A stretch of 64,000 bases of DNA, the filler included, from Sphacelaria rigidula (taxonomy: Eukaryota): the NCBI GenBank assembly GCA_964200075.2. It is 4 parts of 4 records of this genome, joined end to end, with 100 filler letters (N's around TTAATTAATTAA, not from the genome) between each part and the next. Parts side by side here need not be neighbours in the genome. Positions count along the whole stretch, not along the records: positions 16,106 to 32,108 come from CAXNAA020001526.1; 3 more parts are not named here. One strand, 5' to 3'. The stretch's first letter is position 1. Each line of letters begins with the position of its first letter. This document shows positions 13,820 through 44,022 of this stretch, piece by piece. The notes beneath the pieces were generated by a model, which saw only the letters and a program-made list of their open reading frames with translations, had not been told where the DNA came from and did not search any database. Both the position numbers and the translations under genes were made by a program.

Positions 13820-16005
13820 CTTCCCTTGGATTTCCTCTTCCATGACCATTTTCCATCTGTCAGCATCAGGTTCCGCCAGGGTTTCTTTCGCTGTCGGCGG
13901 TTCCTGTGGTCCAATGACGATTCCGCCCCCGAGAATGCAGAATGCGCCGTTGTCCTGATCTTGTAGAAGGGTGGCGAGGAAATTTCCGTCATCAGAACTG
14001 CTGCCGTCAAAACTTCTAAAGCGTTGCTGTGCGTTATCCCCTCGATGCCGTTGCGCTAGTCGACTGGACCTGCGCAGTCCACTGTCCGGAGAAGAGCGCT
14101 TCGATGATGTCGAATCCTGTGGTGGCTGTCCACCCGGGCTATCATCGCCGTCGATTGGCGCTGCTTCCTTTTCTTCCGATGGTTCGTCCTCGTCATCACT
14201 GAGTTCGACCGCCTCCAGCTCCCCTACAATGCCCAGGATATTGGCCTCAGATTCAAACATGATGTGTGAAGACTTGACGAGCTTTTATTCCTGTAACAGC
14301 CATACATACCAGCAGAGAGAGTGCCGATCGTGTGCCCCACCAAGATGCCCCGCTTCGCTAATGGGTGGAACTTCGCAGCGGCGCCGCGTTGCTGCTTGTG
14401 CTGATGCACGAAACACTCCGATCCCCAAGTACGAAGTCGGTCGTAGTGGAAAGGCTTTCCTGTCAGCCTCTCACATAGGGTCTCGCCCCCGAGGTACTCG
14501 TGGGGCATCCCTGCGGTCTTGAATGCCGTGTCCGCCACAGCGAAGAATCAGTAGTCCTCAGTCCTCTCCGCGTCCGGCTTTCACTAGTTAGCTGCGTGCT
14601 GTCCTCATCAGTTGTTGAATTGCACGTTCAGCAATCCCATTACTCTGCGGTGTCCTTGGCGGTGAGTTGCCCCATTTGATGCCGTGATTGGTCAGCATGC
14701 GTTGAAATTTGACTGACCGTCCAAGTTCCCGAGCGCCGTCTCCGCTGATGCATTTGATGGCCACTCCCTCACGGGCCATTTCGTCGATGTAGGTTCCCGT
14801 GGCGTCAGTGGCCGCATCTCGTGTCTTGAGTCCAACAACGTGCTTGTCTCGACTGGCCTTGTCCACGAAAACCTGAAAGTAGTTCATACCTGTGACATCG
14901 GCGTGGAAAGGGCCTTCAAGATCAGTGTGCACAACTTCACCTGGTCCTTTGGGACTCCTGCCGCCGCGGCCGTAGCTGAGCGCCTCGGACTTGCATTCCT
15001 TGCAGACGCTGCAGCGCATCTCGGACGTCACCGTGGTATCAGTGACATCGATCAGCCCACGCTTCTCGAGGTGTTTTATGGCAGCCGGATCGATGTGCCC
15101 TAAGGTGTCGTGCCACTCCTTCAATGTGAGGCGCTGCTTCTTGTTTGCGAACGAAGCGTGCGCCGACGCCGCATGTTTGCCATCCCCTTGCAGCGATACC
15201 GACAGTGTCAGGAACCCTCTATTCTCGGCTAGGGGGGTCTTCGGTCCATCCTTTCTGAACCGAAGGTAGCTCCCCTTTCTGCCGGAATTCACGAATTCTC
15301 CTCCGTCACGCCGAATTGTTCCGGTAGTCAGCGTCCGGCAAGGTAGTCCAGGGACCCAAAGTACGTCCTTCAGTGTGACCTTTGCCGAAGCCACCTTTCG
15401 ATTGACATGTTTGTGTGAGTGTTGGTCGACGTGCACATGGATACTACTCGCTCATCTTCGACCACCACGTTCATCGTCATGAATGCCTGCGGTATTTCCC
15501 TCCTCCCATTACTTCTACCGTTTTGTGGAGGGGGTGGGAACGTTCGTGCGGGGCTCATCCCCGGCGGTCGTTTCGCTGGAGGTTTGCCGTTAAGGTAGGG
15601 GCGACACTCCCGCCATCTATGATTTCGCTTCAAACAGTAGGCGCATTCTATCGATCCCCGAATCGGTTTTGTTGCCGTCGGTTCTCGATTGGAACGCTAC
15701 TGCCTCGTCGCGGCATTCCATGTCAGACGTTAGATATGCTGATGATGCTACGACTGCCCATTTTAGCTCATCGTACGTCACACGTGGCTGGGTTGTTAGC
15801 TGGATGAATACTTGTGGAAGCGCCTCCTTGATCCCGAGTAAAAGGGCTGCCCTTTTAGTCTCGTCGGCTTTGGCGTTTCCCAGCGCTTCGAATTCCCCCC
15901 AGATGGTGTCCAGCTTCACCATGAAATCTGCTGATTCTTCTGCAGAATTGCATTGGAGATCCCGCAGTCTTCGTTCCAATGCAAGTAGTTGCACAGGCCG
16001 CTCGT
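13820..16005 (-). mobile_element. Ty1/Copia LTR retrotransposon fragment (gag, CCHC knuckle, integrase, RT start), frameshifted and truncated
   Basis: Gag-like 15617-15994; CAYCLKRNHRWREC knuckle at ~15605-15650; EWHDTLGHI...CSVC (HHCC); VHTDLEGP...TPQSNGIAER integrase core at 14588-15436; RLRTWGSECFVH/AKRGILVG; EPPTAKETL...WKMVMEEEI at the RT start. Integrase precedes RT, which is the Copia order. Confidence 0.9.
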
Positions 16006-16105: not shown

Positions 16106-16172
16106 TGAAGTCCATGTGCCCGTGATGGGAGGAGTCCACATGGCGATCTGATCTTGAGTAACACAAGTCCAC
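16106..16172 (+). mobile_element. End of an LTR of the contig-2 non-autonomous family, opposite orientation
   Basis: Reverse complement of CTCAAGATCAGATGGCCATGTGGACTCCTCCCATCACGGG..TGGACTTCA, which occurs in the LTRs at 18258, 22323, 25980 and 30477. Confidence 0.75.
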
Positions 16173-16779: not shown

Positions 16780-17850
16780 AACAAAAAGCTCGCTCTGCGT
16801 ACCCGCTTCACGCGGGTCACACGCCCCCTATTGTTTTGATCATACAAGGCGTGTCCACAGCTACGCGCTGCTCCGGCGGCAATTCCGCCAACCCGGCATT
16901 CACGTGTCGTTCAAGCAGACACCCCTGCAAATCGTCTGAACGATCTCTCGCCATGTCACTGGAGCAGATAGATGCCCCGAGCTCACCCTGCTCGCTCGCC
17001 GTACGCGAATAACACCCCCCTGCAGCTTCGAGCATGCAAGGAGTATCTCCAGCTACGCGCTGGTCCGGCGGCAATTCCGCCAACCTGGCATCCACCTGTC
17101 CTTCAAGCAGATACCCCTGCAAATCATCTAAACGATCTCCCGCCCTGTCACCATGAGCACGGCAAGCTCCTTGCTCACCCCGCTCGCTCGCCATACGCGA
17201 ATAACACCCCCTGCAGCTTTGCGCATTCAAGGAGTATCTCCTGCTTTGCGCTGGTCCGGCGGCAACAAGCGGCTAGGACCTCCGCCCACCAGTACGTGCT
17301 CATTGACCTATGTAGACCCCGCTCTTTCAACATCGCCAGCAGCAGCAGTAGCAGTATCACCCATACTCGCTACAGCCGCCACCTTCTGTCCGGCTTGCTC
17401 CTTGACGGCAATAGCGACAACGCCTCTAGCACTCTCGTGCCTGCGCACTCCGACTGGCTTATGTTGTGTCGCCTTCTTGCCCGTCAGAATGTCGTGCCTG
17501 TCTCCACCGCCGCCGACCTTCACACTATCTTGCACTACACTCGGCGATGCATAAGATGCATGCTTGCGCAGCGCAAAGAGCGATTTCTCTCGCCCAACAT
17601 CATTCGCACCATCCAAAAATGTGTCAAACAGACAGTCCTCGATATGTGCGGACATGAGGTCAAAGACCGCTGGCTCCTCAACAACGTGCCAGCGTGCTTG
17701 ACGCTCATTCGTTGCGGATTTTCGGGGGTGTTGTTAAGTAGTTCACCTCTACTACACGTTCAGGTGCTTACGGAGCTGCACGGAGATGCATGGAGGATTG
17801 GATATGAGATTTGCATCATAATATTAGGTCATAAAATATTATCTGGAGTA
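16780..17850 (-). mobile_element. Older relic of the gag-only LTR family (gag N-terminus plus duplicated downstream segment)
   Basis: DLMSAHIEDCLFDTFLDGANDVGREKSLFALRKHA is homologous to the gag at 21278-21856. DLQGCLLERHVNAGLAELPPEQRVAVDTPCM is shared with 20140-21039 and 28544-29200. Confidence 0.7.
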
Positions 17851-18257
17851 TGACTATGACTACTTGAAAGTATAAAGTGTCCAAGGAGGTGTAGTAGGAT
17901 ACTTCCGATAACGAAGACTATGTGTCTGTGAACAACATCTGTCTTGAAGTCTCCAACCACGTCTCCAAGAAGTCTTCTTAATGGAAGCTTTTAAGCTTTA
18001 TTGCACCACTCAACTCATAAGCATACTGTACAAAAAATCATGACTCAAACCACTTCGCAAGCCATGAATTCCAATCGAACAACGGCGAACGGATCTCGAC
18101 CTCCGCCATCATTGATCACCCGTAGTGATATCCTTCTCAAACTCGATTTACCGAGTACATTGGATAGAATTTTTCAACTTGGATTCAGGACCGTGATATT
18201 CCATCGGTCTATTAATCGCGATGGAAAATGCAGCTCATGTCCCAACAGACTTGCAGC

Positions 18258-21200
18258 GATACACTCCTGTCACTCAAGATCAGATTGCCACGTGGACTCC
18301 TCCCATCACGGGTACGTGGACTTCAGCAGCTTTAGTTATTCATGTATTAACCCTCAGCACAGTACAGGAGAACAGGATCATATAGCCTCTCTCCACCAGA
18401 GTAATAAAACCGGCTGTACTCGTCATGGAGGTCACCATCACAGAGTCCAGCAATCAGACCCGCGACTCCACCTACAATGCCCCTGACCTCAGGTAACAAT
18501 GGTGGCTATAGTCTACAGCACCCCCAAAGATCTCTCCTACAAGTAGTTACATCAGAGCTTGACGAACCCAGACATCATTGGGGCCTGATAGTACCGTCGT
18601 TTTCCGCAAAGAATAGCAATCTCTTCCGCTGCTTTCGCCAACAGCTCCATACAGGCTTGCCCCACTTCCAAACAACTCGCAAGAGATTCCAAGACAATAT
18701 CGTCCATCATAAACATGCAACCACACTACTTGCACCACTTCGAGTTACAAAGCGATAGCTAGCGCCAAATTCTCAAATCTTCGCCCAAAACAAGTCTCTT
18801 GACTCTTCATGGGCACGCAACCGAAAATAACAGCGAACGTCAAATCCCAGAGCATTCGTGACTCATCGCCTCTCTCACCAGAGACAACGTTCAACACCAG
18901 CGCAACGGAGTGCAATAGCCAAATGATACATCATCCTCATGCTAGAAGAAAACAATGCATCCAACACGCCTAAAACGCACTTGGAATCTTGCTTCTGCAA
19001 CACCGTAAAAAACGTATGCATCGCATGCCTCCCCGCCGTCAAAGCTCCCATGCTTCAACTTGCCTTCATTTCATAAAGACAATCAAAGGAAAGCCATGGC
19101 TCAGACCGCTTTCAAGTCATGCATACTCAACCAACGACGGCGAACATACGTCGACCTCCGCCATCATTCATCACCCGTAGTACTATCGTTCTCAAAGTCT
19201 TGCTTTCGAGCAAATCCCGGACATTTCTATATTTCGTTTGGATCTTGGACCGTCATATCCCATCCGTGCATCAGCCAACATGTAAATATAACGATCTCCT
19301 CGACTCTCTTGCAGTCCACCTGCACCAGTTCTTTGAACAAATGGACGCATCATCCACATGCTCTTTCTGACATGAACGAAAGACCAACCACGTACTCGTT
19401 CAAACACGTGACAATCCATACAAGAACATGCCACGGTCAAAGATCAGTGATGCATGCCTGCATAGTGTCTTTATCTTCAACCACCGGAAGCACTCGCGTC
19501 ATACGTGCTCACATACGACGAGCCTACGCATTTCGTAGGTTTTGCTCATTTTCACGCTAACAGCAGCAATCCATATATCCTGCAGTCAGTACGTGCAAAC
19601 CGCACAAATACGATTCGACTGTGTTCCTGCGCGAGTAAGATTATACGAGCTTCACGTCATTTAGCATACAGCAGTATATTGAAAACTGCCCCACTCTAGG
19701 TCGTCACCAGATACCATTCATATCAGTACCATTCGAGCAAAAATTCGCACATGCCTGCCAGAATTCCACTCAGCATATGAAAATCCGCACATGCATGCCT
19801 ATATTTCACTCAGCACATGCAATGTCACCTTCCTCGCAGCAAACACCATGCATCATCCATGCCAACCAGATCGGTGCAACACACGCATGCCAAATACCCA
19901 CGTGTACGCCAGACTTTTACCCTACACACGCGATACGATCATACTGGCTCAATAACCATGTTTCATGCGCAAGCATGACCATAAGCCACACAATAACAAG
20001 CTGCAATCATTTTCAGAACGATTCGCGAATACCAGTCATAATGGATGTGTTTCCTCATTCTCAACAAGCACTCAATCACCACAGCACTTACTCCTCAACA
20101 TCAGTACCCCACTCGGCGCTCACCACAAACGCAAACACCTCAGGTAATGCCTTCTTTGTAGTCCTCCAGCCCACTCCTGAGAAACAGCAGCACTCGAACC
20201 ACAACCCAGTGCACAGCGTAGAGCAGCCTTTCCTCTCGGACGCTCTCTCCTTGCACCTTCAGTCTAGCTACACCTGGCACCCCCATGATGTAGCTCAACA
20301 CGCCTCTAAAAGTTATATTCGCACCGCCAAACCAATGCGACAAATCCCCCGCCCCCACAGACACTTGCGCAGTACTGAACAACTGTGCTTCAGTCAGTTT
20401 TACAGAGGAAACCAGAGGCGAAACGGAAACAGCTACACAGTCCCGAACAGCAACACCTCCTGATGGCACACTACCCTCCTCAAACACCCCGCGGCGAAAC
20501 AGTGGAGACACGTCCGCCATCGCCGCCAAATACGCCAAACCTGTCCATGTAAACAGCAATGCACACGACCACTTCAACACCACGCGACGCTCGTCATCGC
20601 CGTCAGAATTGTGATCGCTAACAGCATCACGAGCCTGCAACTCGCTCTGCGGACCCGCTTCACACGGGTCACACGCCCCTGTTGTTTCGCTCATGCAAGC
20701 CGTGTCCACAGCTACGCGCTGCTCCGGCGGCAATTCCGCCAACCCGGCATCCACCTGTCGTTCAAGCAGACACCCCTGCGAATCATCCGAAAGATCTCTT
20801 GCCATGTCACTGGCGCAGATAGATTCACCATAAGCACGGCAAGCTCCTTGCTCACCCTCCCCGTTCACAATACGCGAATAAGACCCCCCTTCAGCTTCGA
20901 GCATGCAAGGAGTATCTCCAGCTCTGCGCTGGTCCGGTGGCCACAAGCAACCGGGACCTCCGCCAACCAGTACTTGCTCATTGGCGAATGTAGGCCCCGC
21001 CCTCGCAACATCGCCAACAGCAGCAGCAGTATCACCCATACTCGCTCGCTACAGCCGCCACTTTTTGCTCAGCGCACTCCTGAACTGCAACAGCGGCAGC
21101 TGAGCGGCCTGCAGTCTGCTCGAGCGACGTGACATATTCGCCCTCTCCAGCAGAAATACCAGCAGCTTCCAAACCAATTCTTACCGTGGTACTTTCGGCG

Positions 21201-22579
21201 GGCGCGTACTCATGCCTCCCCGCTTTGATAGACACGTGCTGTGTCTCCTTCCCGCTTTGCACTGTTTCTATCGTGGGTTAAGACGCGCCATACCGGGCTG
21301 CACGTTCAGCGGTTGCACTATCGCGCCTATCCCATCGGGCAGACACATGCTTCTCGGCTGTCACAGGGCAAGCAGCTGCCCTGTATCGTTGTTTCAAACG
21401 CGCAGCACCTACTGCACGTTCGACGGGTGCGCTGTCGTGCCTGTCCCCTCGGGCAGACACATGTTTCTCGGTTGTCACAGGGCAGGCAGCTTCACCGGAC
21501 GGTGCATGGTTGCGTAACGCGAAAAGCAACTGCTCGTCCTCAACATCATAATCATGTTGCAAGAACATGTCACACAGAAATATAACAATATATTTCGGCA
21601 TGAGCTCAGAAACTGCTGCCACCTCAAAGAGGTTTGTCCACCGCGCGTTCACCTGTTCTACATCCCGCAAATATTGCTCGTATTTGCGTAAAAACTCGCC
21701 CGATTTCTCGCTCGAAAATTTGCGGCCGTAGGACGGCATCTCCAGCGCCAGTATAGGAACAACACGACCGACGATGGCATATTCCTGCGCCTCGTACATT
21801 TCAGTCAGCAGGACAGTACTCCACACGCCGTTTTGAAAAACGAAGTCGCCTCCCACTCACAGGAACAACAACTCTCCCCTTTCACCGAGACGCGCTGTTC
21901 CACCTTACAACGATAATGGCCACAGCGCCTCTTCCTCACGCAGGTCTCCTCACCACATGTTTGAAGTCCTTACACTCCTGTTCATGGCCGTACTTGGCCA
22001 AGCGTGGAACAAGCAACTCTCGCTGGCTCCACTAGGCAGTACGATAATTGCGCCGCTTTTTCTGGAACGCGCATAGGCTCGCCAGCTGTCGATCAACGCT
22101 CCGCACCTCTCGCACGAGCGATACCACAGCCCACCCTAGCACTGCCTCAGAACCTCCCCGGCTCTACTTTTCCAACTCTTGCGACGTTAACACGCCTGGA
22201 GCTGGTCTTGTTTGCTGCAAACTGATCAGGCCTGCAGACTTCTCTATCTTGAAATGTCAGCTGCTTTTCAGCGGACCTACCGCCTCAGCGGACTTAATNN
22301 NNNNNNNNTAATGAACGTTCATTATAGACTTCAGTCACTCAAGATCAGATTGCCATGTGGACTCCTCCCATCACGGGTACGTGGACTTCAGCAGCTCTCA
22401 ATATTTATGTATTAACCCTCATCATAGTACAGGAGAACAGGACCAGATAGCCTCTCCACCAGAGTAACAAAGCCGGCTGTACTCGTCATGGAGGTCCCCA
22501 TCACAGAATCCGGCAATCAGACCCGCAACTTCACCTACAAAGTCCCTGACCTCAGGTAACAATGGTGGCTAGGTCTACA
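18258..22579 (-). mobile_element. Complete non-autonomous Gypsy-type LTR element (copy A, ~4.3 kb)
   Basis: LTRs at 18258-18517 and 22323-22579; 4-bp TSD CAGC (18254-18257 / 22580-22583); GCACCCCCAAAG next to the 3' LTR; gag-like ORF 21278-21856; no intact pol. Confidence 0.88.
21278..21856 (-). CDS. Gag-like ORF with C-terminal 38-aa repeats (element copy A)
   Basis: PSYGRKFSSEKSGEFLRKYEQYLRDVEQVNA...QLLFALRNHA aligns with the chromovirus gag at 41900-42625 (PSYGNLYFECASRSFYTKYVEYKKRVEHANA...QLAAAIKKHA). Confidence 0.7.
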   Translation of the reverse strand: MGGDFVFQNGVWSTVLLTEMYEAQEYAIVGRVVPILALEMPSYGRKFSSEKSGEFLRKYEQYLRDVEQVNARWTNLFEVAAVSELMPKYIVIFLCDMFLQHDYDVEDEQLLFALRNHAPSGEAACPVTTEKHVSARGDRHDSAPVERAVGAARLKQRYRAAACPVTAEKHVSARWDRRDSATAERAARYGAS

Positions 22580-23435
22580 CAGCTCACCTGCATCGCTTCC
22601 CTAAACAAACGGACACTCCATCCATATAATCCTCCCTGATGGAAATAGAATATTTCTTCAAAGACGCTCCATAGCCGAAGATCACTCACCTTTCACCACA
22701 AGAAACACTCGGGTTTCCTTTCGCACATACGAGCCTATGCATTTCGTAGTTACTGCTCATTTTAACGCCACCAGCAGCAATCACCATCTCCTATAGTCAG
22801 TGCCCACAAACTGCACAATAATGACTTCGCCGCGTGTCTGTATGAACACGCATATACGAGGTTTACCTCATCGAGCCTACAGCATAATATTGAAAACTGC
22901 CTCACCCTGACTCTTCGCCAGTTACCATGCGCACTAACATAATGTAGCGAACATTCCACTGACAAATGCCAGCAATTCACGCAGCGAATGCAATGCGATC
23001 TTCCTCGCAGCAAACACCATGCATGGTCCGTGCCAATCAGATTAGCACAACACACACATTCCGAATATGCACATGTACGCCAGAGTTTTACTCTGCACAC
23101 GCGATACGATCAGACTCGCTCGACAACCATGTTTCATGCGCAAACATGACCACAAACCACACAATTACAAGCTGCAATCATTTTCAAAACGATTCGCGAA
23201 TACCAGTCATAATGGATGTGTTTCCTCATTCTCTACAAGGACTCAATCATCTTAGCCCTTGCTCCTCAACGTCAGCACCCAATGCCGCTCTCACCACAAC
23301 AACAAGAGCCTCAGGTAATGCCTTCTTTGTAGTCCTCCAGCCCACTCCTAAGACATAGCAGGACTGGAACCACGACCCCGTACACAGCATAGAGCAGCGT
23401 TTCCACTCGAACACTCGCTCCTCGCGCCATGGGTC

Positions 23436-24200
23436 TGTGAACCTGTCTGGAATCAGGACAAGGTTACAGTGCTGCTCCAGGGGCTTCTTCCCTGTCACGG
23501 GCTCCAGAGACTTCAAGGCTTGAGCAGTCTTATAAACAGCAGTCTTTTGTTAACCAGAAGTGACCCTTTTTTGATCCCCTCACAAACACAATATGTTACG
23601 CATTCAACAATCATCCTCCAAGCCGTTGTCACACGATCCAAAGTGATATCCATATGCTACCGTTCTCCTCATGCTAGAGGTGCTACTGTACTTTCTCTAC
23701 AGCAACCCCAAGCTACGTTCTACTCAAAGGTAGAAAACGAGCATGATCATCAGTAGACATCGACAACAAATCTGGGATGTCAACAAAGAACAATCATGCG
23801 AACGATCACCAAGCGGTATACTTGACGAACACCAACCGCATGATACAATCCATCCACGAAGTACCAAGATAACCAGTCATAGTTTGATACCATACTTGGT
23901 CTTCAGACGCTCCCGTACCTCCTTATTCAGTCTCAACTTTCGCAGTTAAGATCGTACAAACTGCGGCGCTCCTCTCCAAATAACATCCCACGGCTCCCAT
24001 GATCTTTCGTCCTCGTCGAAATCTACCCATTCCACACGTACATCGTAGCCATCTCCTTCGTGAGCCTCAGATATCCCGACGATAACCTCCATCTCGAACT
24101 CTCCTGAAGCATATGCATGCTGGAACACCTCCTTCAGATCTGCAGTGACCTCCAGTTCCTTGTCCGCATTGTACCAAGACAGGTGACATGCGCGTCTTTT
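23436..24200 (-). mobile_element. 3' end of a chromoviral Gypsy element: chromodomain and probable LTR (~23436-23633)
   Basis: LEVTADLKEVFQHA...VRVEWVDFDEDERSWEPWDVIW chromodomain, homologous to 37602-37870; TGTGA...TCACA-bounded ~200-bp segment preceded on the minus strand by CTTTGGATCG. Confidence 0.72.
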
Positions 24201-24334
24201 TCCTTGCCATTCACGATATTCTGAATCTCGTAGACATGTTTTTGCTCCGCTGCCACGATCCTTCAAGGCCCTGTCCACGTACTTGCGAGTTTCGGCGTTG
24301 TTCCTGAGCGCACAACTGCATGTTCTACGACACA

Positions 24335-24975
24335 CAGATCACGTGGTGCGGAAAGGTCTTTTCAGGTGGTCAAGGGGCTCATGACCGCGAGAGACTGAGC
24401 GGGCTGGCCAATCTTAAGCGTCCGCGCACAGCAGGCGAGCTTATGCAGTTCCTGCAGTAGGTACACTGGCTGAGAACGTCCCTGTCGCGTTTGGCGGAGG
24501 TGGTGGAGCCGCTGCGGGTATTACTCGAGGAACACATGCAGGGCAACGTGCGCCGTACCAAGCGAGTGGCGTCAAACCGGACAATCCAAGAGTCGGCATG
24601 GACGTCCCGGTGTGCTCAGGCGTGGCACGAGGCGCAAGATTTGGTGGCGCATGCTGTCGCTTTGTCATATCCCAAGCAGGGGTATGAGGTTCTCATGTTT
24701 CCAGACGCATCGGATCTACACTGGGGAATTTTTCTTACGCAGGTGCCGGAGGATGGGCTGGGTGGTGCATTGGCGGTGGAAGACATGAGCCATGAGCCGA
24801 TGGGGTTTCTTAGCGGAACTTTTCGTGGAGCGCAGGTTCGGCAGGCTACGGTGGACAGGGAAGGCTATGCAATCGTAAGTACTTTCCATAGGTTGGATTA
24901 TCTTCTCGGGGGTGGGGTTCATATCTTCACCGATCATCGTAACCTAGAATACATTTTTAAGCCCGAGGCGTGTCG
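24335..24975 (+). mobile_element. Gypsy RT C-terminus / RNase H fragment
   Basis: LAEVVEPLRVLLEE...LMFPDASDLHWGIFLTQVP...HIFTDHRNLEYIF, homologous to 39350-39980. Confidence 0.85.
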
Positions 24976-25979
24976 AACTGCACGTGCGCAGCTTCTGTTG
25001 ACCAATTTTCCCCTCATGGTTTTTGATCCAGGTAGTCAAATCTATCTCAAGGACTGTATAACTTTTCCCCTGTGTGGTGCACCGTGATAGTACTCGTGAC
25101 TCGCGCCTCGTGCTGCTTGGTGCTTGCTGCGGCGCTTGACTGCACACCTTGTGCCATGCTGGGCCAACGCGCATCGCACGCCAACTCCGCCTTGCTGTGT
25201 TTTTGTGTATTTTTGTGATATACGCATATGCACGATGCACTGTGGTACGCGCCGCGTACACAGCGTAACCCCACCTGGTCATTCAGTGCAGCACGGTCAC
25301 ACGGCCAGCCATCCCTGGCTCGCGTATTTGGTCTTGTTACCCTCTCTTTTCTGACAGGAGAACTTTTTTACCACAGGTTTGTTACAGAACAACGCTGCAA
25401 AGGGTGCATCGTCGCTCACAGCCACCTGTTGTTCCCTACTTGAGCCTCGGCCCAGCCAGCTATCCGCCGCTTTCACATTTCAGTATCGATTGTACACGGC
25501 TGGTGCATCTTTCGTTTATGGGTCGTTCGATAATATAACCCGTGCCTCCCCAACAGGTGACTACGGACATGTGTACACGAGAACTGTACCCGTTCTGGCA
25601 CCTTCGCTGCGTCGCGATATACGCCACTCGTAGCTAGTTTGTTGTTGTTATTCTCTTCTAGTGTACTATGCACATCTGTAGAGCAGCGCTGTATATCACC
25701 GTGGTAATTACCAATACTCAGCCCAACGGACTGTGATACTTTTCTCATTGAACCCCTCTCGGCCAAAGAAATAATAAACTGTCCCGAGACCGTTCCGTCG
25801 CGATAATACTCGCTTGTAACATCCCAGACCTACGTTACGTGCTCACTTGGAGCACACGGCACTCAAAACCAGTGCCCCTTGGCTGTGTACCACTTTTTCG
25901 GCACACGCCCTCAGCGTTGCCCTTGTTGCGCACGACTTCAACGTTCATATATGTACGTCGCCCCACCTCCGTTGGGTAA

Positions 25980-28900
25980 TAAAGACTTCTGTCACTCAAG
26001 ATCAGATGGCCATGTGGACTCCTCCCATCACGGGCGCATGGACTTCAGCAGCTTTGGTTATTCATGTATTAACCCTCAGCATAGTACAGGAGAACAGGAC
26101 CCTAGTGTCTCTCCAACAGAGCAGCAACACCGGCTCTACTCGTCTCGGCGGTCACCATCACAGATTCCGGCAATCAGACCCGCAATCCACGGACACAATG
26201 TCCCTAATCTTAAGTAACAACGGTGGCTAGAGCCTACAGCACCCCCAAAGTTCTCTACTACCAACAAGTAGTTACATCAGGGCTTGACACACCCAGACAT
26301 TATTGGTGCCTGATAGTACCGTCGTTTTCCGCGAAGAATGACAACCTCTTCTGCTGCTTTCGACAAAATCCAATACAAGCTTGCCCCACGTCCGAACAAC
26401 TCGCAAGAGATCCCACGAAAATATCGTCCATCATGAACATGCAATCACGCTACTTGCACCACTTCGAGTTACAAAGCGATAGCTAGCGCCGAATTCTCAA
26501 ATCTTTGCCCGAAAGAAGTCTCCTGACTCTTCATTGGCAAGCAACCGTCAAATTCCAGAGCAGTCGTGACTCATCGTGCCTCTCATCCGAGACAAGGTAC
26601 TTCTCAACATACACAATGCACTCCTTGTACGTCCAACACCTGCGCAACGGAGTGCAACAGCCGAATGATACATCATACTGACGCTAGAAGGAAATAAGCA
26701 CCCAACACGTCTAAAACGCACCTGGCCTCTTGCTTCTGCAACACCGTAAAAAACGAATGCATCGTATGCCTCCCTGCCGTCAAAGCTTGAATGCTTCAAC
26801 TTGCCATCATTTCATAAAGACAATCAAAGGAAAGCCATTACTCAAACCGCTATGCAAGTCATGCATACTATCCAACGACGGCGAACGGACCTCGATCTCC
26901 GCTATCGTTAATCACCCCTTGTGATCTCGTTTTCGAACTCTTGTTTTCGAGCAAATCCCAGATATATCTATATCTCGTTTGGATCTGGGACCGTCATATC
27001 CCATCCGTGCATCAGCCAAAATGTAGATATAATGAATTCCTCGACACTCTTGCAGTCCACCTGCACCAGTTCTTCGAAGAAATGGACGCATCAGCCACAT
27101 GCTCCTTCTGACATGAACGAAAAACCAACCACGTGCTCGTTCAAGCACGTGAAAATCCGCACAAAAATTTGCCACCGTCAAAGATCATTGATGCATGCCC
27201 GCATAATGTCTTCATCTTCAACCACCGGAAGCACTCGCGTCATACCTGCTCACATACGACGAGCCCACGCATTTCGTATCTTTGAGCTCATTTTCACGTT
27301 AACAGCAGCATTCCATATCCTTCGAAGTATCCTGCAGTCAGTACGTGCGAACTGCACAAATATGATTCGACTGTGTTCCTGCGAGAACTAGATTATACGA
27401 GCTTCCCTTCATTTAGCATACACAGCAGTATATTAAAAACTGCCCCACCCTAGGTCGTCACCAGATACCATTCATATCAGTACCATTCAAGCAACAATTC
27501 ACACATGTCTGCCAAAAATCCACTCAGCATATGAAAATCCGCACATGCATGCCAATACTTCACCTAGCACATGCAATGCCACCTTCCTCGCAGCAAACAT
27601 CATGCATCGTCCGTGCCAACTACATCAGCACAACACGCACATGCCAAATATCCACGTGTACGCCAGAGTTTTACCCTGCACACGCGATAGGATCATACTC
27701 GCTCAACAGCCATGTTTCATGCGCAAGCATGACCACAAACCAGACAATAACAAGCTGAAATCATTCTCAACACGCACCCGATCACCACAGCACTTGCTCC
27801 TCAACATCAGCACCCAACTCGACGCTCATCACAACAGCGAACACCTCAGGTAATGTCTTCTTTGTAGTCCTCCAGCCCGCTCCTGAGAAACAACACTCGA
27901 ACCACAACCCCGTGCACAGTGTAGAGCAGCCTTTCCTCTCTGACACTCCCTCTTTGCACCTTGAGTCTTGCTACACCTGGCACCACTATGGTGTAGCTCA
28001 ACACGCCGCTCAAAGGTATATTCGCACCGCCGAACTAATGCGACAAGTCATCTGCCTCCCCCGATACTTGGGCAGTACTGAACACCTGTGCTTCAGTCAG
28101 TTTTACAGAGGAAACCGGAGGTGAAACGGGAACATCTACACAGTCCCGAACAGCAACACCTCCTGATGGCACACTATCCTCCTCAAACACCCCGCGGCGA
28201 AACAGTGGAAGCACCTCCGCCATCGCTGTCATATACGCCTAAGCTGTCCATGTAAACAGCAGTGCACACGACCATCCCAACACCGCGCGACGCTCGTCGT
28301 CGCCGTCAGAATAGTGATCGCTAACGATTAATGCCGAGATAGCCCCCCCACGAAACGGGCACCGGCACCATCCAACGAACCGGCTGCACGTTTTGCAGCA
28401 ATTTCGCCCACATGAGAGGCGTGTAGCAGTCCGAAATCAGCTATAACGCCCAATTCAGTCGCGTTGTGTAGAACGAAACAAGCTTGAACGGCACTTATTG
28501 ATCATCGCCTCTGTGCACGTTTTCGGCCGGTTTGGGGGAGGGGCTATCTGGGCAGCAGTCTAACAGCTTCACGAGCTTGCAGCTCATTCTGCGTACCCGC
28601 TTCACGCGGGTCACACGCCCCTGTTGCTTCGATCACGTAAGGCGTGTTCACAGCTACGCGCTGCTCCGGCGGCAATCTCGCCAACCTGGCATCCACCTGT
28701 CCCTCCAGCAGACACCCCTGCGAATCATCTGAACGATCTCCCGACATGTCACTGGCGCAGATAGATTCACCCTGAGCATCGCAAGCCCCAAGCTTGCTCT
28801 GCTCACTCTCATCACGAAGATAAAACCCCCTCGCAGCGGTGTGCATGCAAGGTGTGTCGCCAATCACGCGCTGGTCCGGCGACCACAAGCAACCTGGACC

Positions 28901-30713
28901 TTTGCCGCTCAGCGCTAGCTCATCGGAGCAAATTGGCTTCGCGCTTCCAACAGCAGCGGCGGCAGCGGCTGGATCAAATATCCCCGCTTCAGCCACCACC
29001 TCCTGCTTAGCGTACTCCTGAACGGCAACAGCGGCAGCTGAGCTGCCTGCAGTCCGCTCGAGCTGCGTGGCATGTTCGCCCTCTCCAACAGCAATACCAG
29101 CAGCATCCAAACCAATGCTTACCGTGGAGCTGTCGGCGGGCGCGCTCTCATGCCTACCCGTTTTGACAGACACGTGCTGCGTCTCCTTCCCGCTCTGCAC
29201 AGTGGAAATAGCTGCCCTGTATCATGGTTTTAGACGCGCCCTACCGACTGCACGTTCAGCGGGTGCACTATCGTGCCTATACCCTCGGGCAGAAACATGC
29301 TTGTCGGCTTTCACAGTGCCGGCATCTGCCCTGTATCGCTGTTCCAAACCCGCAGCACATACTACACGTTCGGCGGGTGCACTGTCATGCCTGTCCCCTC
29401 GGGCAGACACATGTTTCTCGGCTGCCACAGGGCAAGCAGCTGCGCTGTTTCGTTGTTCCAAACGCCCAGCACCTACTGCACGTTCGGCGGATGGACTATC
29501 GTGCCTGTCCCCTCGGGCAAACACATGCTTCTCGGCTTTCACAGTGCAAGCAGCCGCACGGGACGGCGCATGCTTGCGCAACGCGAGAAACAACTGCTCG
29601 TTCTCAACATCATAATCATGCTTCAAGAACGTGTCACACAGACATTTCGCAAAATGTTTCGGCATGAGCTCAGAAACTACTGCCACCTCAAAGAGGTTTG
29701 TCCACCGCGCGTTCACCTGATCTACATCTAGCGCATATTTCTTGTACTTCCGTAAAAACTCGGCCAGTTCTCGCTCGAAAAACTGCGGCCGTAGTACGGC
29801 ACCTCCAGCGCCAGTACAGGGACAACACGACCATCGACGATGACATATTTCTGCGCCTCATCATGGAGAACAGTCGAACAGGCTTGGTCGCTCGCCACCT
29901 CCACGGTTCTCATCAAGCGCCGAGCTACCACAACATATTTACATAGTGAACACTCACACAGCAAAATCACACAGCAGCACCTCAACAGCTCGAAAGCTGT
30001 TCCAGAAAAAACAGCGTTGTTTCTCTATCACAGAAACAATACAATAACCTTCCATATACCAAGACGCGTTTCGCCACCAAACGACAATGGCCACAGCGCC
30101 ATTTCCTCACGTAGGTCTCACCACGTGTTTAAACTCCTTAGACTCCTCTTCTCGAACGCGGCTGGCCAACCTCGAACCAGCCCTCTCGCAATTCTCCCGT
30201 CTCGAGTAGTAGTTGCGCCGCGTTTTTTGGAATGCACACGGGCTCGCCAGCTGTCGATCAACCCCCTGCACCTCACGCACGGGCGATACCACAGCCCGCC
30301 CTGGCATGCCTCAGAACCTTCTCGGCTTTACTTCTCTAATTCCTCGCGGCCTTAACACGCCTTGAGCTGGTCTTGTTTGCTGCAAACTGATCAGGCCTGC
30401 AGACTTCCCTATCTTAATGTGTCAGCTGCTTTTTCAGCGGACCAACTGCCTTTCAGCGGACATAATGAATGTTCATTGTAGACTTCTGTCACTCAAGATC
30501 AGATGGCCATGTGGACTCCTCCCATCACGAGCACATGGACTTCAGCAGCTTTGGTTATTCATATATTAACCCTCAGCATAGTACAGAAGAGCAGGACGAT
30601 GGACTCTCTCCACCAGAGGAGCAAAACCGGCTCTACTCATCACGGCAATCAGACCCGCAATCCACGGACACAATTTCCCTAACCTTAGGTACCTGTGGTG
30701 GCTAGAGTCTACA
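25980..30713 (-). mobile_element. Complete non-autonomous Gypsy-type LTR element (copy C, ~4.7 kb)
   Basis: LTRs at 25980-26238 and 30477-30713 (TGTAGACT...AGTCTACA termini on the right LTR); 4-bp TSD GTAA (25976-25979 / 30714-30717); frameshifted gag at ~29222-29870; colinear with copy A. Confidence 0.88.
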
Positions 30714-31458
30714 GTAACGAGCGTTCGTGCATGCCCTGCTGCCACTTTTGCCAAGCACACAAGTTGCGTACGACTATCATATCGCACAGAAATAACGCTG
30801 GCTCTTCCCCTCAATTGGGAAACCAATCGCTTCATCGGACACGAAGTCAAACCGCTGGCCCTGCGAAATCTTCTGATATGAGTTTCATGTCAACTTAAAC
30901 TTTTCGATGCACGTACGCGAGCGCTGTTCGATCTTCGGGATCTGAAGACCAACCTTCGAGCGATGCTCCTTCTCCGGGGCTTGAAGAAAAGACCTTGACG
31001 CCGCGACCTGTTCTCTCACGTACCGATTTGGACTCAGAGAACAGGACCGTGCCACCGGCCGAGTCATTGGCTCCTGACAGACATGTCAGTGAACCCATAA
31101 CGGTGGATTGCGTAGCACCCCCGTCGCTGCGGCCTGTTCTTCCGAATCCCTATGTGGAATCCGAAGTCAGGATTGTGCCCCCAGCCGAGTCGCTGCCCCT
31201 GGACACACGTGCACAGCTTGGTCCTGTAACGGTTGCTTCAACAGTGGCACCCCGTCGAACGACGGTTGACAACTCTCGAGACGACTCAGTCCTGACGAAG
31301 CGTATCGCTTCTAGAGCAAGAGATTTTGTCACGCTGGCTGCTTCCGTTACGGACCCCCATCGTCACGCTGGCTCTACTGCACACACACGCGGCCATTCGG
31401 CTACCTGTAGAGAATTTTGTAAAACGAAACACTCCCTAGCGTCCGTTTTTAAAATGCC

Positions 31459-35084: not shown

Positions 35085-35975
35085 GCTGTTAATTTTGTAG
35101 CTTCCCCAATCCTGCCGGAGTGGAGGGCGTACTGCCTAGGGTCTTTCCCTGCGCGACTTGCTAGCTGCTGTAGAGCCGCGGCATCTTCGTTGCGCGTGAT
35201 AACTTTCCACCCCTTTCCACTCCAGGTCTGCATCAGCTGCGCTTGTGCGCCTAGGCTAGGGTCATTCTAGTGCGCCGTTGATCTGTTGGTACACTTCGTC
35301 CTGTTCCACCGGAATCCTTTTCTAAGATGTTGCTGCTCCTCGGCGTTTTTGATCTGCCTTGGAGGCCTCAAACGTAACCCCCACCGTGTCCGCTTCCCTC
35401 CTGCCAACCCCTTCAAGATGGCCTGAACCTTGAAACAATTGTAGATCGCCTCTGGTGAGGCAAAATTCGGAATGTACTAAGCCGGTGTTGTATGCCCAGA
35501 TTTCCGAGGCTTTACACAGTAGAAATTATTACAGCGCCATACTGATCCACTTGACGCGCTTTTCCACCGACTCCGCACTTCTTGATCCTTTTGCATTCAA
35601 GATGTCTATCGTCAAGGGTTTCCTCACTCTCCTCTCAACCTCACCTCAACCTCACCTCCCCCATGCATCCTGTCAATACCCTTGTATATCGCAGGTACCA
35701 TACAGTGCCGAGAGGGTAACTCCCACCCCGTCAACACCTTATGAAAGTATTGGATAGCAGACAGGTATGATCGTACTGTTGAGCTCTGGTTCCCGTGGCA
35801 GAAAGCCCTACTCGCCATGAACGTAGTGAGGGAGTTCACTGCGGCCAGCTCCCCGTCTTCTTCTCGTAAGAAGTCCTGCTGCCCCCGAGCTTCTCTCCAT
35901 TTTACCCTTCTCTCGAATTGCCTCATGTAGCCTTCTTGGTACTGCTACCTGCGGATGCGAGGGCTAACGTTCCTA
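35085..35975 (-). pseudogene. Tyrosine recombinase of the YR retrotransposon (stops/frameshifts, C-terminus truncated)
   Basis: STVRSYLSAIQYFH, AIYKGIDR, LLCKASEIWAY (catalytic-Arg box), YALHSGRIGEAT (H-x-x-R box). Confidence 0.85.
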
Positions 35976-36239
35976 TCAGCTCTTGCTCATCATGTAAGTG
36001 ACCGTGTTGTTGTCCTGGTGAGTATCGAGGGGGATAGAGAATGGGGAAAGGAAGGTATGGTGCCAAAACGGGCGGCGCAAGTGGTGATGGTAGCCTTTGT
36101 TAATTAACCACAACTCATCGTCTAGTCGTCTTTCCGGCAGCGGTTCATGAAGAACCACGTCGAACATAGTTTCCCCCCGAAGACCAATGTCGTAATATTT
36201 CCAGCCCTGTTCTCCTCTTAATTGCTTAATTTTGTTTTG

Positions 36240-36986
36240 AACTTGGTCCGCCGGCCATCTCGAAATTCCGTCAGCCAGTACATTGCCAATACCTCGAATG
36301 TGTTGTGCTATTGGACACTATCGCGATGTGAGTTCCATACGACAAATCGTTCTCATGAGTAGGCCAGCCCGCCTGTTACGAGAACCCCCACAGCGGTTCA
36401 CCCACGATACTGCGGAGGCGTTGTCGCCCCGCATCAATACTGGCTCTCCTGGCTCCGTGGGTTTTTCTCCAAGAAACATCTGAATAACGTACGCCGTCAT
36501 CATCATCCCGTACAATTCGAAATGATTTATCTTAATGGAACAGTTTTCTCTGGCCTTTGCTTTGCGGACTAGTTCCGACGTAAAGGCGGGGGGGAAGATG
36601 TATCGCCAGAAAACCTTCAGCTCTGGGCAGTATCCTCCAACAGCGCTGAAACTGGCGTCCGAAAAATAGCGTCGTGAAGCCGGCCGATCTACCCGGGAAA
36701 ACAGAGAGGCGCTAAGCGCTTCTCCTTGGTCAAGTAATACTTTATGATCGATTGCCCATGTTCCAAAAGAAATATCCCCATGGAAATCCCACCCCAGCTT
36801 TAGTCGTTTTCTGTTGTCCTGTTTTCTGCGGCCCGCTTGATGTAACCCGGATACTCGTAACAGCTGCCAAACAAAATATGTACCGGCTGGGACAACGTAG
36901 GTGAGGTTCCACAATTTTCCGGCCACACTCAGTATGTCAGCGACGGAAGCATACGACCTGTCCTGGGGCCATTCGTTTTTCAACAT
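36240..36986 (-). pseudogene. RT thumb / RNase H of the YR retrotransposon
   Basis: YFSDASFSAVGG, INHFELYGM, RGDNASAVSWVNR, HIRGIGNVLADGISR: the DIRS-type RNase HI D-E-D-D motifs. Confidence 0.88.
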
Positions 36987-37239
36987 CTCACGGATTTGTT
37001 CAATCTTTTGGGTGGGTATCTAAATTCACATGCTGTGAGTGTTGATGGTGTACCTCAACGCCTCCACGGTGGTACCCCAATCGGTACTTTTAGTGGGTGC
37101 TAGGATTGGAGTTTCACCGCGTTCGCCTGGTCCGAATAATCTCAGGTGGTCGGAAGCGAGAGAGGTGGATGCTAGTAACGCTAACTGGTCCTCTTCGTCG
37201 TGTTGTATTTTGGCAAATATAAAATCATCTACACAAACC

Positions 37240-37498
37240 GGTGACGCCAGCAGGTTGCTAGTACTGCAGCGTCTAATGCTGTTGAGGGACTCCCCAGTTA
37301 CACTGGCCTCAGGTTTCACTTGTTCGCCTTCACAACAACATTTATTATCCTGGAGTGCCACCCAGGCACATACGCTCCATAAACCACACCAGGGTATCAA
37401 CCCTGTGTCTATGTCATCATACATATCATCACTACATATCCCAAGTGATCATCCATATCATCACTATATACTGGACGTGACGGCATGATTTCGTCACA
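37240..37498 (-). repeat. 3' LTR of the Gypsy element
   Basis: About 90% identical to 42896-43154, same length. Confidence 0.93.
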
Positions 37499-40400
37499 GC
37501 ACCCCCAAAGCGCGTTGGACGAGAATCGAGCAACAAGCTTAACACCCAGAAAATTAACGCCAAAACGATTGAGCAAGTCACAACTGAATTCCAAACCCAC
37601 GCTAAATGCAAGCAGCAATGGAACGAGTCACTCGCACCTTACGCAACTCCTTTTTGAGAAATTCCGAAGCGGCCTCCGAAATATTTTCAACAGGCTCCCA
37701 CGTACGCTCCTCGACTCCAAAACCAACCCAGTCGACCAAAATGATCAACGAACGATCCTCTGCCTCTGCCACGCGAGCAATCCCAGCCATCTGAAATTGC
37801 CGCTGGTTGGAAGCGTGCTGAAACACATCCTTCACGTCTGCCGTTACATTAAGCTGTGAGTCTACATAAAAACGCAGACGAGCTACATGGGCGGTCTGAA
37901 CACGACCCAAAACAATGTTTTGGATCTCGAACACATGTGGGTGATGAGCAACAACCACTCTCCACGGACCAGTCCACGTCGCCATTACTTCAGGCGTAAC
38001 TCCCGGGCGACGCACGCGTGCATACAACAAATAATCACCTACCTTGAAATTCGGCAATTTCAGCCCCGGCAGAGACCCCTCACGTCTACGCGCACGTTCA
38101 GCGGCAACACGCTCCTGCACTTGAACGTGGAAGCTTTCCTGCAACTCCAAACCTCCTTGCAACGCGCGCTTCAGTTGCGCATCACCCAAGACTCACAGTT
38201 CCATTCCCCCGCCGATGAGGACGCCAACACCGAGATAGACATCCGAGGGGCACGACCGATCATCACGTCACACGGCTTACTACCGTATCGATGGCGATAT
38301 GCTGTATTTCGTGCCCATTGCACAGCGGGCAACACGTCCACCCACTCGGTCACCTCTCGACGCTGCTCGAGAAGAATAGATCGAAGAGCAAAAACTACTT
38401 CCTTAAGCGTGTGTTCGCACGTGCCGTTAGACCACGGAGAATATGCCGCCGCAAACCGGTGATCAACGTGTAATGCCTCTCACAAGCGGGTCAAGATCAT
38501 GTTCTTGAAATGCGTGGCGGTATCACTCATCCACACACGCGGTACACACACACGCGGTACCCCCAAAGTTTTGCACCAATTCAGCAAAGATGCAGCGGTC
38601 GATTCGGTAGTACACGCTGCTACTGGTTCCAGAGACACGAAGTTGCTCAAATCATCCATGATTACTAAAATGTATCGAAACCCAGCATCCTCCAACAAAC
38701 CTTGGGAAGCTAGCGGGCCACTTTCGCCCACGTACAACAAGTCAAAATGAACGACTTCATTCGGCGTGGTCCCATGGACCGTTTCAACGAGCGGGCGGGA
38801 AACAACATCACACGCCCTCGAGTTAGCACAGTGAAGAAGACACTGTCGGACAAACTCTCGCATCAGAGATTCTATTCCCTTACAAATACGAAAATCTTGC
38901 AAGCGCACCAGTGTCGCAGCCACACCGCGATGCCCGGCATCGCGCATGTGCGCACAAATCATCAAACGTATCTGCAATTGTTTGTTTGAGCTGGGAATCC
39001 ACAGCACGTTTCGGCCACGTACATGCACACGAAACAAACCTTCATTGTCCAAAACCACAGTAACAACATCCGACTCGAAGGATTGCACATCCGCATCTGT
39101 GGCCCCAAGTTCTTTCCGTTGGGCTTGGCGGACCACAGATTTCGACGGCATCAAATCATCCGCTTCACACAAACCAGATACAGTCTCAGCTCGCGCGGGC
39201 ATAGTGGGAATATTCACCCAGCGCGACAACAAGTCACCCCATGCGTTACGCTCACCCAAAATATGACAAATCGTGTACCGATACCGACCTAATACACCTT
39301 TTCACCAATGCAATCGCTGTGCCAACGCCTTCGACATAGACATCACGCATGCCTCCGGGTTGAAAATGTACGCTGGATTCCAGTGATACGTGAATATGTG
39401 CACGCCATTTCACAATAGATGCTCGAGACGACGAAACGTGCTCACGATAGCAAAACCTTCCTTGTCAACAGTTGCCAAACACATCTATGAACCCTTGAAA
39501 CTACCACCAAGCAAGGTCGGCGGTTCATGCATCATTTTTTCAACCGGCAACCGTTGTTGCATTTCTGCATCAGGCACCTGCGTTACAAAACTACCCCAAT
39601 GACACTCGGATGCATCCGGAAACATCAACACCTGGCACCCGGGGCGGGGATGGAACAGCGTCACGGCATGATACACCACATCCTTCGCTTCCGCCCATGC
39701 CTGCAGCCTATCCTCCGTCCACAATGCGGGCGGAATAACGCGGCTTTTGGTCACCCGCTTCGTGCGCCTTGCAGCCCCCCCCATGAGTTCTTATAGCAAA
39801 ATACGCAAAGGCACCACTACATAGGCCATACGTGGCAACGAGTTACCCAACCAGTTCATTGCGTGCAGGAATTGCAATATTTCTGCTACTGTTTCTGGAC
39901 ACCGCATATTAGACAAATCTTGCAAGCGGACCGGGTCATGCGAGACGCGGCCGTGTGAATATGCTTTTCCACACCACCGTAATTCTCTAGCAAAAAAAGG
40001 TACACTTGAGGGTAGCTGCAAACAGACCAGCACTCTGTAAGCGAGCCAAGATTGCATCAACCGTATCCAACAGTTCGCCTTCTGTATCCGCGAAGAAAAA
40101 ACATCATCCACCCAGATCTTGCATTTCAAGCCATCCAAAGGGTCTACCATGAGACCTTGAAATAAGAAGTAGCATTCAACACACCTTGCGGTGCTTGTTG
40201 CGAGGTAAACATGCCAAACGGAGTCGTGATGATGGTGAATATCTCTTGCGCCTCTTCGGCCAAAGGCATCTGCCAGTACCCCTGTAGGAGGTCCAACTTA
40301 CCGATGCATCGCGCACTCACCAGGTCTATCATGTCGGATTCCTGATTGGACATGACACCCGGCGACTTCTCCACCTGATCATTGACGGCTCCGTAATCGC

Positions 40401-42895: not shown

Positions 42896-43154
42896 TGTGA
42901 CGCCAGCAGGTTGCTAGCACTGCAGTGTCCAATACTGTTGAGGGGCTCCCCGGTTACACTGGCCTCAGGTTTCACTTGTTAGCCTTCACAACACCTTTTA
43001 TTATCCTGGAGTACCACCCAGGCACATACTCCCCATAAACCACATCAGGGTATCACCCCTGTGTCCATGTCACCATCCATATCATTACTATAAATCCCAA
43101 GTGATCATTCATATCATCAATATATACTCGACGTGACGGCGTGATTTCGTCACA
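42896..43154 (-). repeat. 5' LTR of the Gypsy element
   Basis: TG...CA ends with 7-bp terminal inverted repeats. Confidence 0.93.
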
Positions 43155-44022
43155 AACCACAGCAAAGAAGAGGTCGTCAGGTCCCCCTCCCTTCGACGGG
43201 ACCACTCCGATGTTAGGCGGTACTGCCGTGGGCGGACCCACCTCCCATGGCGGGACTATTCGTACGTGTTCCAGCATCCTCCTTTTTTCCTCGAGTATGT
43301 CTACATTGTTCGGAGTAGTACGACAGTGAGAATGTTCTATGGGTTGCGAGAGCAGCCCCCAGAAATCTGGGGATCCCGTCCAGCCGAAGGTGAGCCGAAA
43401 ATCAGCTACCAAGATATCGTTGATCACGTAGCGACACTTGTGCGCATGTTCTGCGGCGACGCGCACGTTTCGGAAAGCGTTCGCTACATCGGCTTTGACA
43501 AGAGAATCCGTTTGTGTGGGAATTTCTTTCTAAGCCGTAGGATTTCTTGTAGTAATTGTGGCAAGGCCTCGGCGCAAAGACAACCTGGGATTTCGTCGGG
43601 GTTGGTGACGGCGTTCACTTCTCCTTTCGTACCGGGTTTGGAATCGATGTCGAACGAAAAGTCATGGATAATGCGGACCTTATTGGTGACAACTGCTCCT
43701 GATGGAGCTACTCGCAAATGCTCAATTTCTTGGGCCGCTGATCGGTTCAAAACCAGGCATCTGTTCCTCTCAGACATGTGAGGTGTGGCCGTCGATACTT
43801 CTGTGGTTACCGTATTCGAGTGTTCGCCTCAAGCCCGGTGCGGTTTCTGTCGTGTCTATCGGCACACCCGTGTTCGAGGATGTGCATAAGGTTTTCTATT
43901 TCCGAAAAACGTTTTACTTCTCCAAAATGGTGGTGGACTTCACGGAGGTTTATAGGCGGTGACACCAGAGTGCCGCCGAGCCTCCCCAACACGTCTCCAA
44001 GGTTCCCGTTGTACAGTCTCAT
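43155..44022 (-). pseudogene. Reverse transcriptase N-terminal part of the YR retrotransposon
   Basis: LRVAPSGAVVTNKVRIIHDFSF, ILLSKxDVANAFRNVRV, DFRLTFGWTGSPDFW; continues as VCVDDFIF at 37239 downward. Confidence 0.88.

Follow-up and report, generated by a model that had tools for sequence, protein, structure and literature searches.

A palindrome in the primer-site position of two LTR retrotransposon families of the brown alga Sphacelaria rigidula, with a possible role in priming between two element RNAs

How might an LTR retrotransposon begin reverse transcription when the bases directly after its 5′ LTR hold no tRNA-type site and instead form a palindrome with the last base of the LTR? 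This question is raised by a 64,000-nucleotide stretch of the Sphacelaria rigidula genome (hereafter the window), which consists of four contigs separated by spacers at 16006, 32109 and 48209, and whose retrotransposon proteins have named homologs from Ectocarpus and Sphacelaria. A first-pass annotation had reported a perfect 16-bp palindrome at an LTR boundary on contig 2, and we confirmed from the sequence that TAATGAACGTTCATTA, at 22309–22324, is such a palindrome.

Contig 2 carries two complete, gag-only copies of one LTR family (family 2), both on the minus strand: copy A at 18258–22579 and copy C at 25980–30713. The 5′ LTR of copy A (22323–22579, minus strand) is 257 bp long, has TG...TA termini and adjoins the target-site duplication (TSD) GCTG at 22580–22583; its 3′ LTR (18258–18517, minus strand) is 91% identical to it and is flanked by the TSD at 18254–18257. 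In copy C the 5′ LTR (30477–30713, minus strand; TG...CA) is 237 bp long with a 22-bp deletion and adjoins the TSD TTAC at 30714–30717, and the 3′ LTR (25980–26238, minus strand) matches it at 90% identity. With their 3′ partners and the exact 4-bp TSDs as guides, the 5′ LTRs can be seen to end at 22323 (copy A) and 30477 (copy C), and loose ends of public contigs at 30477/30479 match the LTR end of copy C. Copy A contains a gag-like open reading frame (ORF; 21278–21856, minus strand) that goes on in a broken frame at 20140–21048, and a tblastn search of 18258–22579 gave no match to pol between the LTRs. The gag-like ORF of copy C (29222–29857, minus strand) shares 87% DNA identity with that of copy A over 499 bp. 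The family-2 ORF that follows the leader had no Pfam hit; it aligned with the start of the ECR-like Gag represented by 11 related gag-pol proteins (hhalign, E 3.3e-7, probability 93%). A polypurine-tract-like motif, TTTGGGGGTGC (18518–18528, minus strand), precedes the 3′ LTR of copy A and is identical in copy C. With two LTRs, a TSD, a polypurine tract, gag and no pol, copies A and C are gag-only non-autonomous LTR elements.

A candidate autonomous partner of family 2 lies on the same contig. Pol remnant B (23880–24997), with its RNase H part on the plus strand and its integrase end and chromodomain on the minus strand, is rearranged and is followed by family-2-like 3′ sequence; copy A is inserted in this family-2-like 3′ sequence of the older relative that carries the remnant. 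The lineage of remnant B may have supplied the functions that family 2 lacks. A full-length gag-pol element with a family-2 gag was found in 0 of 1758 candidates, which is weak evidence. Within remnant B, which is 87% identical to protein P0001, the RNase H part is inverted with respect to the integrase-chromodomain part, with the junction near 24310. Most of contig 2 (16106–32108) consists of nested family-2 copies and remnants, namely copy A inside B, copy C, a gag remnant at 16789–17733 and an LTR piece at 16106; the last is the 3′ end of another family-2 LTR (16106–16172, plus strand), which starts at the contig edge, runs into unrelated sequence and is thus a 3′ or solo LTR. This nesting, known here from the contig alone, resembles the short ECR clusters described at brown-algal centromeres. 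Elsewhere in the window, a fragment of Copia-type pol at 14588–16005, whose hits to gag-pre-integrase and integrase fall below cut-off, is cut short by the contig end, and a 140-bp imperfect inverted repeat with two 16-bp palindromes (at 52188 and 52216) occupies 52153–52292, within an apparent intron of a host gene.

The palindrome of family 2 occurs in two forms. In element sense, the 5′ LTR of copy A ends in TA and is followed by ATGAACGTTCAT and then by TA. The 14-bp form (22310–22323, minus strand) is made up of the last LTR base at 22323, a self-complementary 12-base core at 22311–22322 and one closing base, and the 16-bp form (22309–22324, minus strand) is present only where the LTR ends in TA and not CA, because the second-last LTR base then extends the symmetry. 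The 14-bp form is the family rule, and the 16-bp form depends on a TA-ending LTR. The earlier statement that the palindrome spans the LTR boundary at 22323 stands with the refinement that the 14-bp form overlaps the LTR by a single base and the 16-bp form by two. In copy C, whose LTR ends in CA in element sense, the same site (AATGAATGTTCATT; 30464–30477, minus strand) carries one transition, at 30470, as had been reported; the label ‘CpG-type’ given to it holds as a description of the change only. The palindrome follows three of three 5′ LTRs (copies A and C and element G on contig 3; copy C with one mismatch) and none of the three 3′ LTRs, and it is also absent after LTR fragment D.

A 10-N scaffolding gap at 22299–22308, which is not part of the element, had been raised as a caveat to the copy A site. 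The same four letters, TAAT, stand on both sides of this gap, public contigs cross the site in copy C, and at 30462 the copy-A letter is present in 84–95% of contig depth, so the palindrome is not a gap artefact. The family-2 leader (30380–30430 and 22215–22265) contains several short palindromes, including CTGATCAGT (element sense) about 80 bases past the LTR, which is the same 9-mer as the commonest CHSeq1 of the fungal Copia element GalEa, probably by chance. Rfam gave no match in 16100–48200.

Public contigs from 4 of 11 runs aligned to copy C at 30340–30600 with 80% likeness, and these gave a view of the site at the level of the family. The four runs represent at most four samples from three studies, with run X1 possibly the source sample, and the percentages below are depths of contigs, unlike raw reads, and do not equal copy counts. 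At 30470, where copy C is mismatched, the four runs gave the palindromic letter in 98.0, 99.3, 98.7 and 96.4% of depth, which makes the copy C change a rare variant and the family majority a perfect palindrome. The second-last LTR base (30478 in copy C, 22324 in copy A) varies: 30478 G>A, which gives the TA end, made up 51, 53, 59 and 81% of depth with all LTRs counted, and TG-TA and TG-CA termini thus coexist in one family. The closing base at 30464 varied in 22, 10, 13 and 4% of depth, so that the most constant part is the 12-base core directly after the LTR. A further change, 30463 T>C (17, 13, 23 and 0%), is complementary to the CA-type end at 30478 and would restore 16 bp; since the variant table is unphased, this compensated outer pair (T/A or C/G at 30463/30478) is a lead only. 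Within the core, 30474 C>T reached 1.4, 1.3, 2.4 and 15.5% of depth, the last in run X6, with no mirror-image change among the 40 rows listed. The adjoining U5 likewise has few variant rows, so that the core is not clearly less variable than U5; together with the unmirrored change at 30474, this gives no clear sign of purifying selection on the core. The contigs of X6 that cross the site are not counted as evidence of transcription, because the RNA nature of that run is only guessed.

A second element, G, lies on contig 3 at 37240–43154 and has 259-bp LTRs, the TSD GGTT and the same tract TTTGGGGGTGC as family 2. Its 5′ LTR (42896–43154, minus strand) has TG...CA termini, and its 3′ LTR (37240–37498, minus strand) is 90% identical to the 5′ LTR. 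The gag-pol region between them (37581–42637, minus strand) is degraded by stops and frameshifts and encodes Gag, protease, reverse transcriptase (RT), RNase H, integrase and a chromodomain, in the Gypsy-type order RT, RNase H, integrase, chromodomain. All of its Pfam hits are below the cut-offs, with the chromodomain at E 6e-5, and by segment it is 47–82% identical to protein P0015. In element sense the 5′ LTR ends in CA and is followed by ATATCGATAT and then T, and the 12-bp palindrome AATATCGATATT (42885–42896, minus strand) begins at the final base of the LTR. This bears out the earlier observation that the palindrome on contig 3 differs in its letters while keeping the same position and symmetry. 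Around it, element G also has an inverted repeat between U5 and leader (42855–42926, minus strand) that is not found in family 2. The predicted stem has an energy of −30.2 kcal/mol, which was equalled in 0 of 1000 mononucleotide shuffles and is weaker against dinucleotide shuffles (z −1.84, 10 of 200). We rejected the extended stem as a common feature, as it belongs to G only; for family 2, p was 0.09–0.74 in six of six tests and z was −0.65. The insertion of element G breaks up another reading frame, immediately ahead of a VDD motif (35600–37239 and 43155–43830 of the window). This frame had no Pfam hit over these two intervals; it resembles an RT of DIRS/Ngaro type and lies near a recombinase-like ORF.

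Could such palindromes arise at this position by chance? Across the window, palindromes of 14–20 bp start at 14 of 64,000 positions and those of 12–20 bp at 46 of 64,000. For a zone of 15 centres after the LTR the chance is 0.0019 and 0.0075, or jointly about 1e-5, a post hoc figure for two families that are related. The palindrome is real and family-wide, and it is very unlikely to be of chance origin.

The same position holds none of the primer sites that we looked for. No TGG follows the 5′ LTR at any of the three junctions (first 14 bases in copy A, 30 in copy C and 30 in G), and no tRNA genes were found in the window. For a Tf1-type complement within the LTR, the best duplex of the site with an element’s own LTR was no better than with shuffled LTRs (a fraction of 0.14–0.91 of the shuffles did as well, in six of six tests), and the longest exact complement of the site elsewhere in each element is 7–8 bases. 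A Tf1-type primer candidate picked by eye about 25 bases after a TATA-like motif in the family-2 LTR was dropped after the shuffle test of the duplex. What the site does pair with is itself: the calculated self-duplex has an energy of −16.5 kcal/mol for the 14-mer, −19.1 for the 16-mer and −10.9 for the 12-mer of G, and fold-back hairpins reach only −0.9, −2.2 and 0 kcal/mol, respectively. The change in copy C lowers self-pairing to −7.4 kcal/mol.

Comparison of the two families suggests that it is the symmetry of the site that is shared, and not its letters. Family 2 and G differ in their pol/gag background, their LTRs cannot be aligned with each other (p 0.31), and they carry different palindromes in the same register, both starting from the last A of the LTR. 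The differences between the two palindromes are mirror-symmetric, with at least one substituted pair and a symmetric one-base difference in length, and in both families even the centre, which would be the loop of a hairpin, is self-complementary. Cross-pairing between them is negligible, at −0.1 kcal/mol. The first-pass annotation had proposed selection on self-complementarity. The different letters, common register, mirror-symmetric differences and lack of cross-pairing agree with that proposal; the covariation comes from a comparison of two families only, and selection would here look the same as symmetry made by the copying mechanism itself.

The two families are nonetheless kin. A tree built from 39 RT-RNase H segments placed G and remnant B in two different subclades of one clade (support 0.996), which includes an Ectocarpus-named protein and has oomycete-named proteins among its nearest outside groups. 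The polypurine region that they have in common speaks weakly for kinship (p 0.011 and 0.015), and a similar tract is present in the unrelated Gypsy element L029. At L029 (2555–2975), a distant Gypsy on a circular contig, the similar G-rich tract is accompanied by a CA-T-TGG junction, a candidate ordinary tRNA site; lying shortly before an ORF and next to a putative LTR end, this junction, found by eye, is a weak control. Another distant Gypsy with a chromodomain (L001, 452–473) has, upstream of its gag, an AT-rich palindrome of 14 bp that begins with AAT and ends with ATT, and we did not count it because there is no second LTR to fix the boundary. Searches for further 5′ junctions gave six loci in metagenome contigs (28–34% identity) and four in genome contigs, none of them delimitable, and the four genomes of those loci gave 18 matches with no delimitable 5′ junction. 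In three of these genomes the tract pattern had four one-mismatch hits against four control hits. Viral contigs yielded no relatives in three protein scans, and two pattern hits there had no element around them.

We propose, at roughly even odds (about 0.5), that the palindrome is the primer-binding site and that the primer is the same sequence from a second element RNA. Two genomic RNAs within a particle would pair antiparallel through the 12–16-base palindrome, and RNase H would cut one of them where it leaves the duplex on its 3′ side. Such geometry is that of Tf1, where RNase H is reported to generate the primer by cutting an RNA duplex of 11 bp at its end (PMC7175516). The freed 3′ end would then adjoin U5 of the uncut RNA, from which it could prime minus-strand strong-stop DNA, and the uncut RNA would retain the site for plus-strand transfer. 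Consistent with this proposal, the site starts at the last base of the LTR in both families and is found only after 5′ LTRs. Only one of the two RNAs may be cut, given that the template must keep the site for plus-strand transfer; in a symmetric duplex, cleavage could strike both strands and so destroy that site, and the model therefore requires an unexplained asymmetry. The uncompensated core variants, in copy C and at 30474 (C>T), also speak against it, although these may be dead copies, and palindromes near the 5′ end of an RNA can be dimer signals that do not prime, as reported for Ty3 (PMC11381356).

This last point leads to an unlikely alternative, in which the palindrome is a dimerization or packaging signal of the kind of the retroviral dimer initiation site (DIS) or Ty3 PAL6 and the primer is something else, whether a protein, a distant RNA segment or a small RNA. 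The self-duplex is stable enough for such a role, with the dimer of G gaining 16.3 kcal/mol over two monomers, and Ty3 RNA is reported to dimerize through a 5′ palindrome. In that same account, however, the Ty3 palindrome is hundreds of bases away from the primer site and additional to it (PMC11381356), whereas here the palindrome takes exactly the place of the primer site, and we found no other such site in the elements. Decidedly less probable is fold-back priming within one RNA, where the site would form the tip of a U5-leader hairpin, be cut at its 3′ base and prime its own U5, a second RNA providing the overlap later. The extended stem of G is centred on the palindrome, and a larger hairpin at the junction is predicted in five of eight cases in GalEa (PMC5445492). 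Yet the hairpin by itself is marginal in the 14-mer and in G, the larger stem is not significant in family 2 and is modest in G under the dinucleotide shuffles, and the loop of a hairpin need not be self-complementary, as it is here.

We consider it very unlikely that the palindrome acts on DNA, through cDNA fold-back, end protection or plus-strand transfer, or that it is a neutral product of template switching at the LTR junction. Core variation that is not clearly lower than in U5 and the tolerance of non-canonical TA ends would fit these readings, which nevertheless leave the primer unexplained; a neutral origin would also not be expected to yield one and the same register across two subclades as well as fungal Copia. 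Least of all do we favour a cryptic tRNA fragment as primer, with the symmetry incidental. Half-tRNA primers are reported from the Copia lineages Osser, Bryco, Gymco-II and Bianca, but the plant survey that describes them places them in Copia only (PMC6317226), and two different tRNA fragments, both perfectly self-complementary over 12–14 bases, would be needed here.

If priming between two RNAs is taken up again as the preferred reading, its wider form, to which we give slightly less than an even chance, is a fourth way of priming LTR elements besides whole tRNAs, half tRNAs and the Tf1 type. One packaged genomic RNA would be cut and would prime the other through the palindrome, and this mechanism would have had separate origins in fungal Copia and stramenopile Gypsy, the latter represented here by a lineage that includes the centromere retrotransposons of brown algae. 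As different palindromes do not cross-pair, the site would act as a family-specific code of self-recognition, and copying of the primer would mirror mutations between the arms. Priming with neither a tRNA site nor a Tf1-type complement has been open at least since the 2017 report on GalEa (PMC5445492). A longer perfect palindrome in Gypsy, its letters differing between two subclades, is a sign of convergence on a single mechanism, and the palindromes of the two subclades are natural compensatory variants for a direct test. Should the lineage be that of ECR, the idea could be tested in Ectocarpus, where ECR-1 copies are reported to be intact and to mark centromeres. A palindromic site also explains why annotation tools would miss the primer site in these elements.

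Element G probably belongs to the ECR/ECR-like lineage, a placement made against the published description of ECR-1. That element is described as 6.6 kb long with a single ORF of 1699 aa, a chromodomain, 273-bp LTRs and a 4-bp TSD, and the closest relative of ECR/ECR-like elements is given as Gypsy-20_PR of Phytophthora ramorum (PMC11541908, bioRxiv 10.64898/2025.12.07.692804, PMC12477816). Likewise, G is colinear with single ORFs of about 1650 aa with a C-terminal chromodomain, has 259-bp LTRs and a 4-bp TSD, and has oomycetes, including Phytophthora ramorum, as its nearest named outside relatives; as G itself is broken, we infer its single ORF from the colinearity with relatives that are intact. 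Family 2 resembles ECR-2 of Ectocarpus and the TR-GAG elements, with which it shares the lack of pol, TG-TA termini (about half of depth), nested clustering and a polypurine-tract region in common with a chromodomain element. ECR-2 is described with 231-bp LTRs, no recovered coding region and degraded copies only, whereas family 2 has LTRs of 257–260 bp, a gag remnant and complete copies with TSDs. This likeness is an analogy, because TG-TA ends and similar tracts are also present in other Gypsy families of Ectocarpus. In PMC12477816, PMC11541908 and bioRxiv 10.64898/2025.12.07.692804, the main texts contain no instance of ‘palindrom’ or of a primer site for ECR elements, and five supplements of PMC12477816 contain no PBS and one unrelated palindrome hit. 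In the literature searched, outside which lie Repbase and most subscription papers, we found no Gypsy or stramenopile element that is described as having a primer site of palindromic form. Sites of this kind are known, though unexplained, and seem to be undescribed for the present lineage.

Several known systems share parts of this arrangement. Ty3 PAL6 (PMC11381356) and the retroviral DIS (as cited in PMC5445492) are likewise self-complementary, lie in the 5′ part of genomic RNA and can pair two RNAs, but by these accounts they are 6-base signals additional to a tRNA site, which the 12–16-base palindrome replaces here. Bivalve TRIMs are reported to have inverted repeats and no primer site (PMC6934838), and three primer types are recognized among plant LTR elements (PMC6317226). 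Like the Tf1/Tf2, Tj1 and Tf1/sushi chromoviruses, the present elements would be primed independently of tRNA from a duplex of similar length (11 bp in those elements) beside the LTR and are associated with a chromodomain integrase (PMC7175516, PMC4600332, PMC6317226), and it is by analogy with Tf1/sushi elements that we propose the RNase H cut. The Tf1/sushi site, however, is complementary to the 5′ end of the transcript inside the LTR, a complement absent in family 2 and G, and is described as not palindromic (PMC5445492); moreover, the chromodomain Gypsy lineages of Ectocarpus are classed as distinct from chromoviruses in PMC12477816.

The closest parallel is GalEa, for which Donnart et al. 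(2017, PMC5445492) describe a 9-base site, CHSeq1, that forms a palindrome once the last A of the LTR is included and has two symmetric main variants, along with a downstream partner, CHSeq2; in their account no known model fits, and a priming function is hypothesised only. As with CHSeq1, there is no tRNA site in the Sphacelaria elements, a palindrome that includes the final A of the LTR occupies the primer slot, its variants are mirror-symmetric, and the LTR holds no complement. The elements themselves differ, being Ty3/gypsy from a brown alga, with a palindrome of 12–16 bp against 10 bp in GalEa and a TSD of 4 bp against 5 bp. As a counterpart of CHSeq2, a complementary 9-mer 12–41 bases downstream, none of the elements here has an exact complement of the site over 8 bases; inspection by eye shows a match of 7 of 8 bases in G, about 35 bases further along, and none in family 2. 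The palindromic site described here fails the Tf1 complement test and would, by analogy, work like that of GalEa, in elements that are not GalEa.
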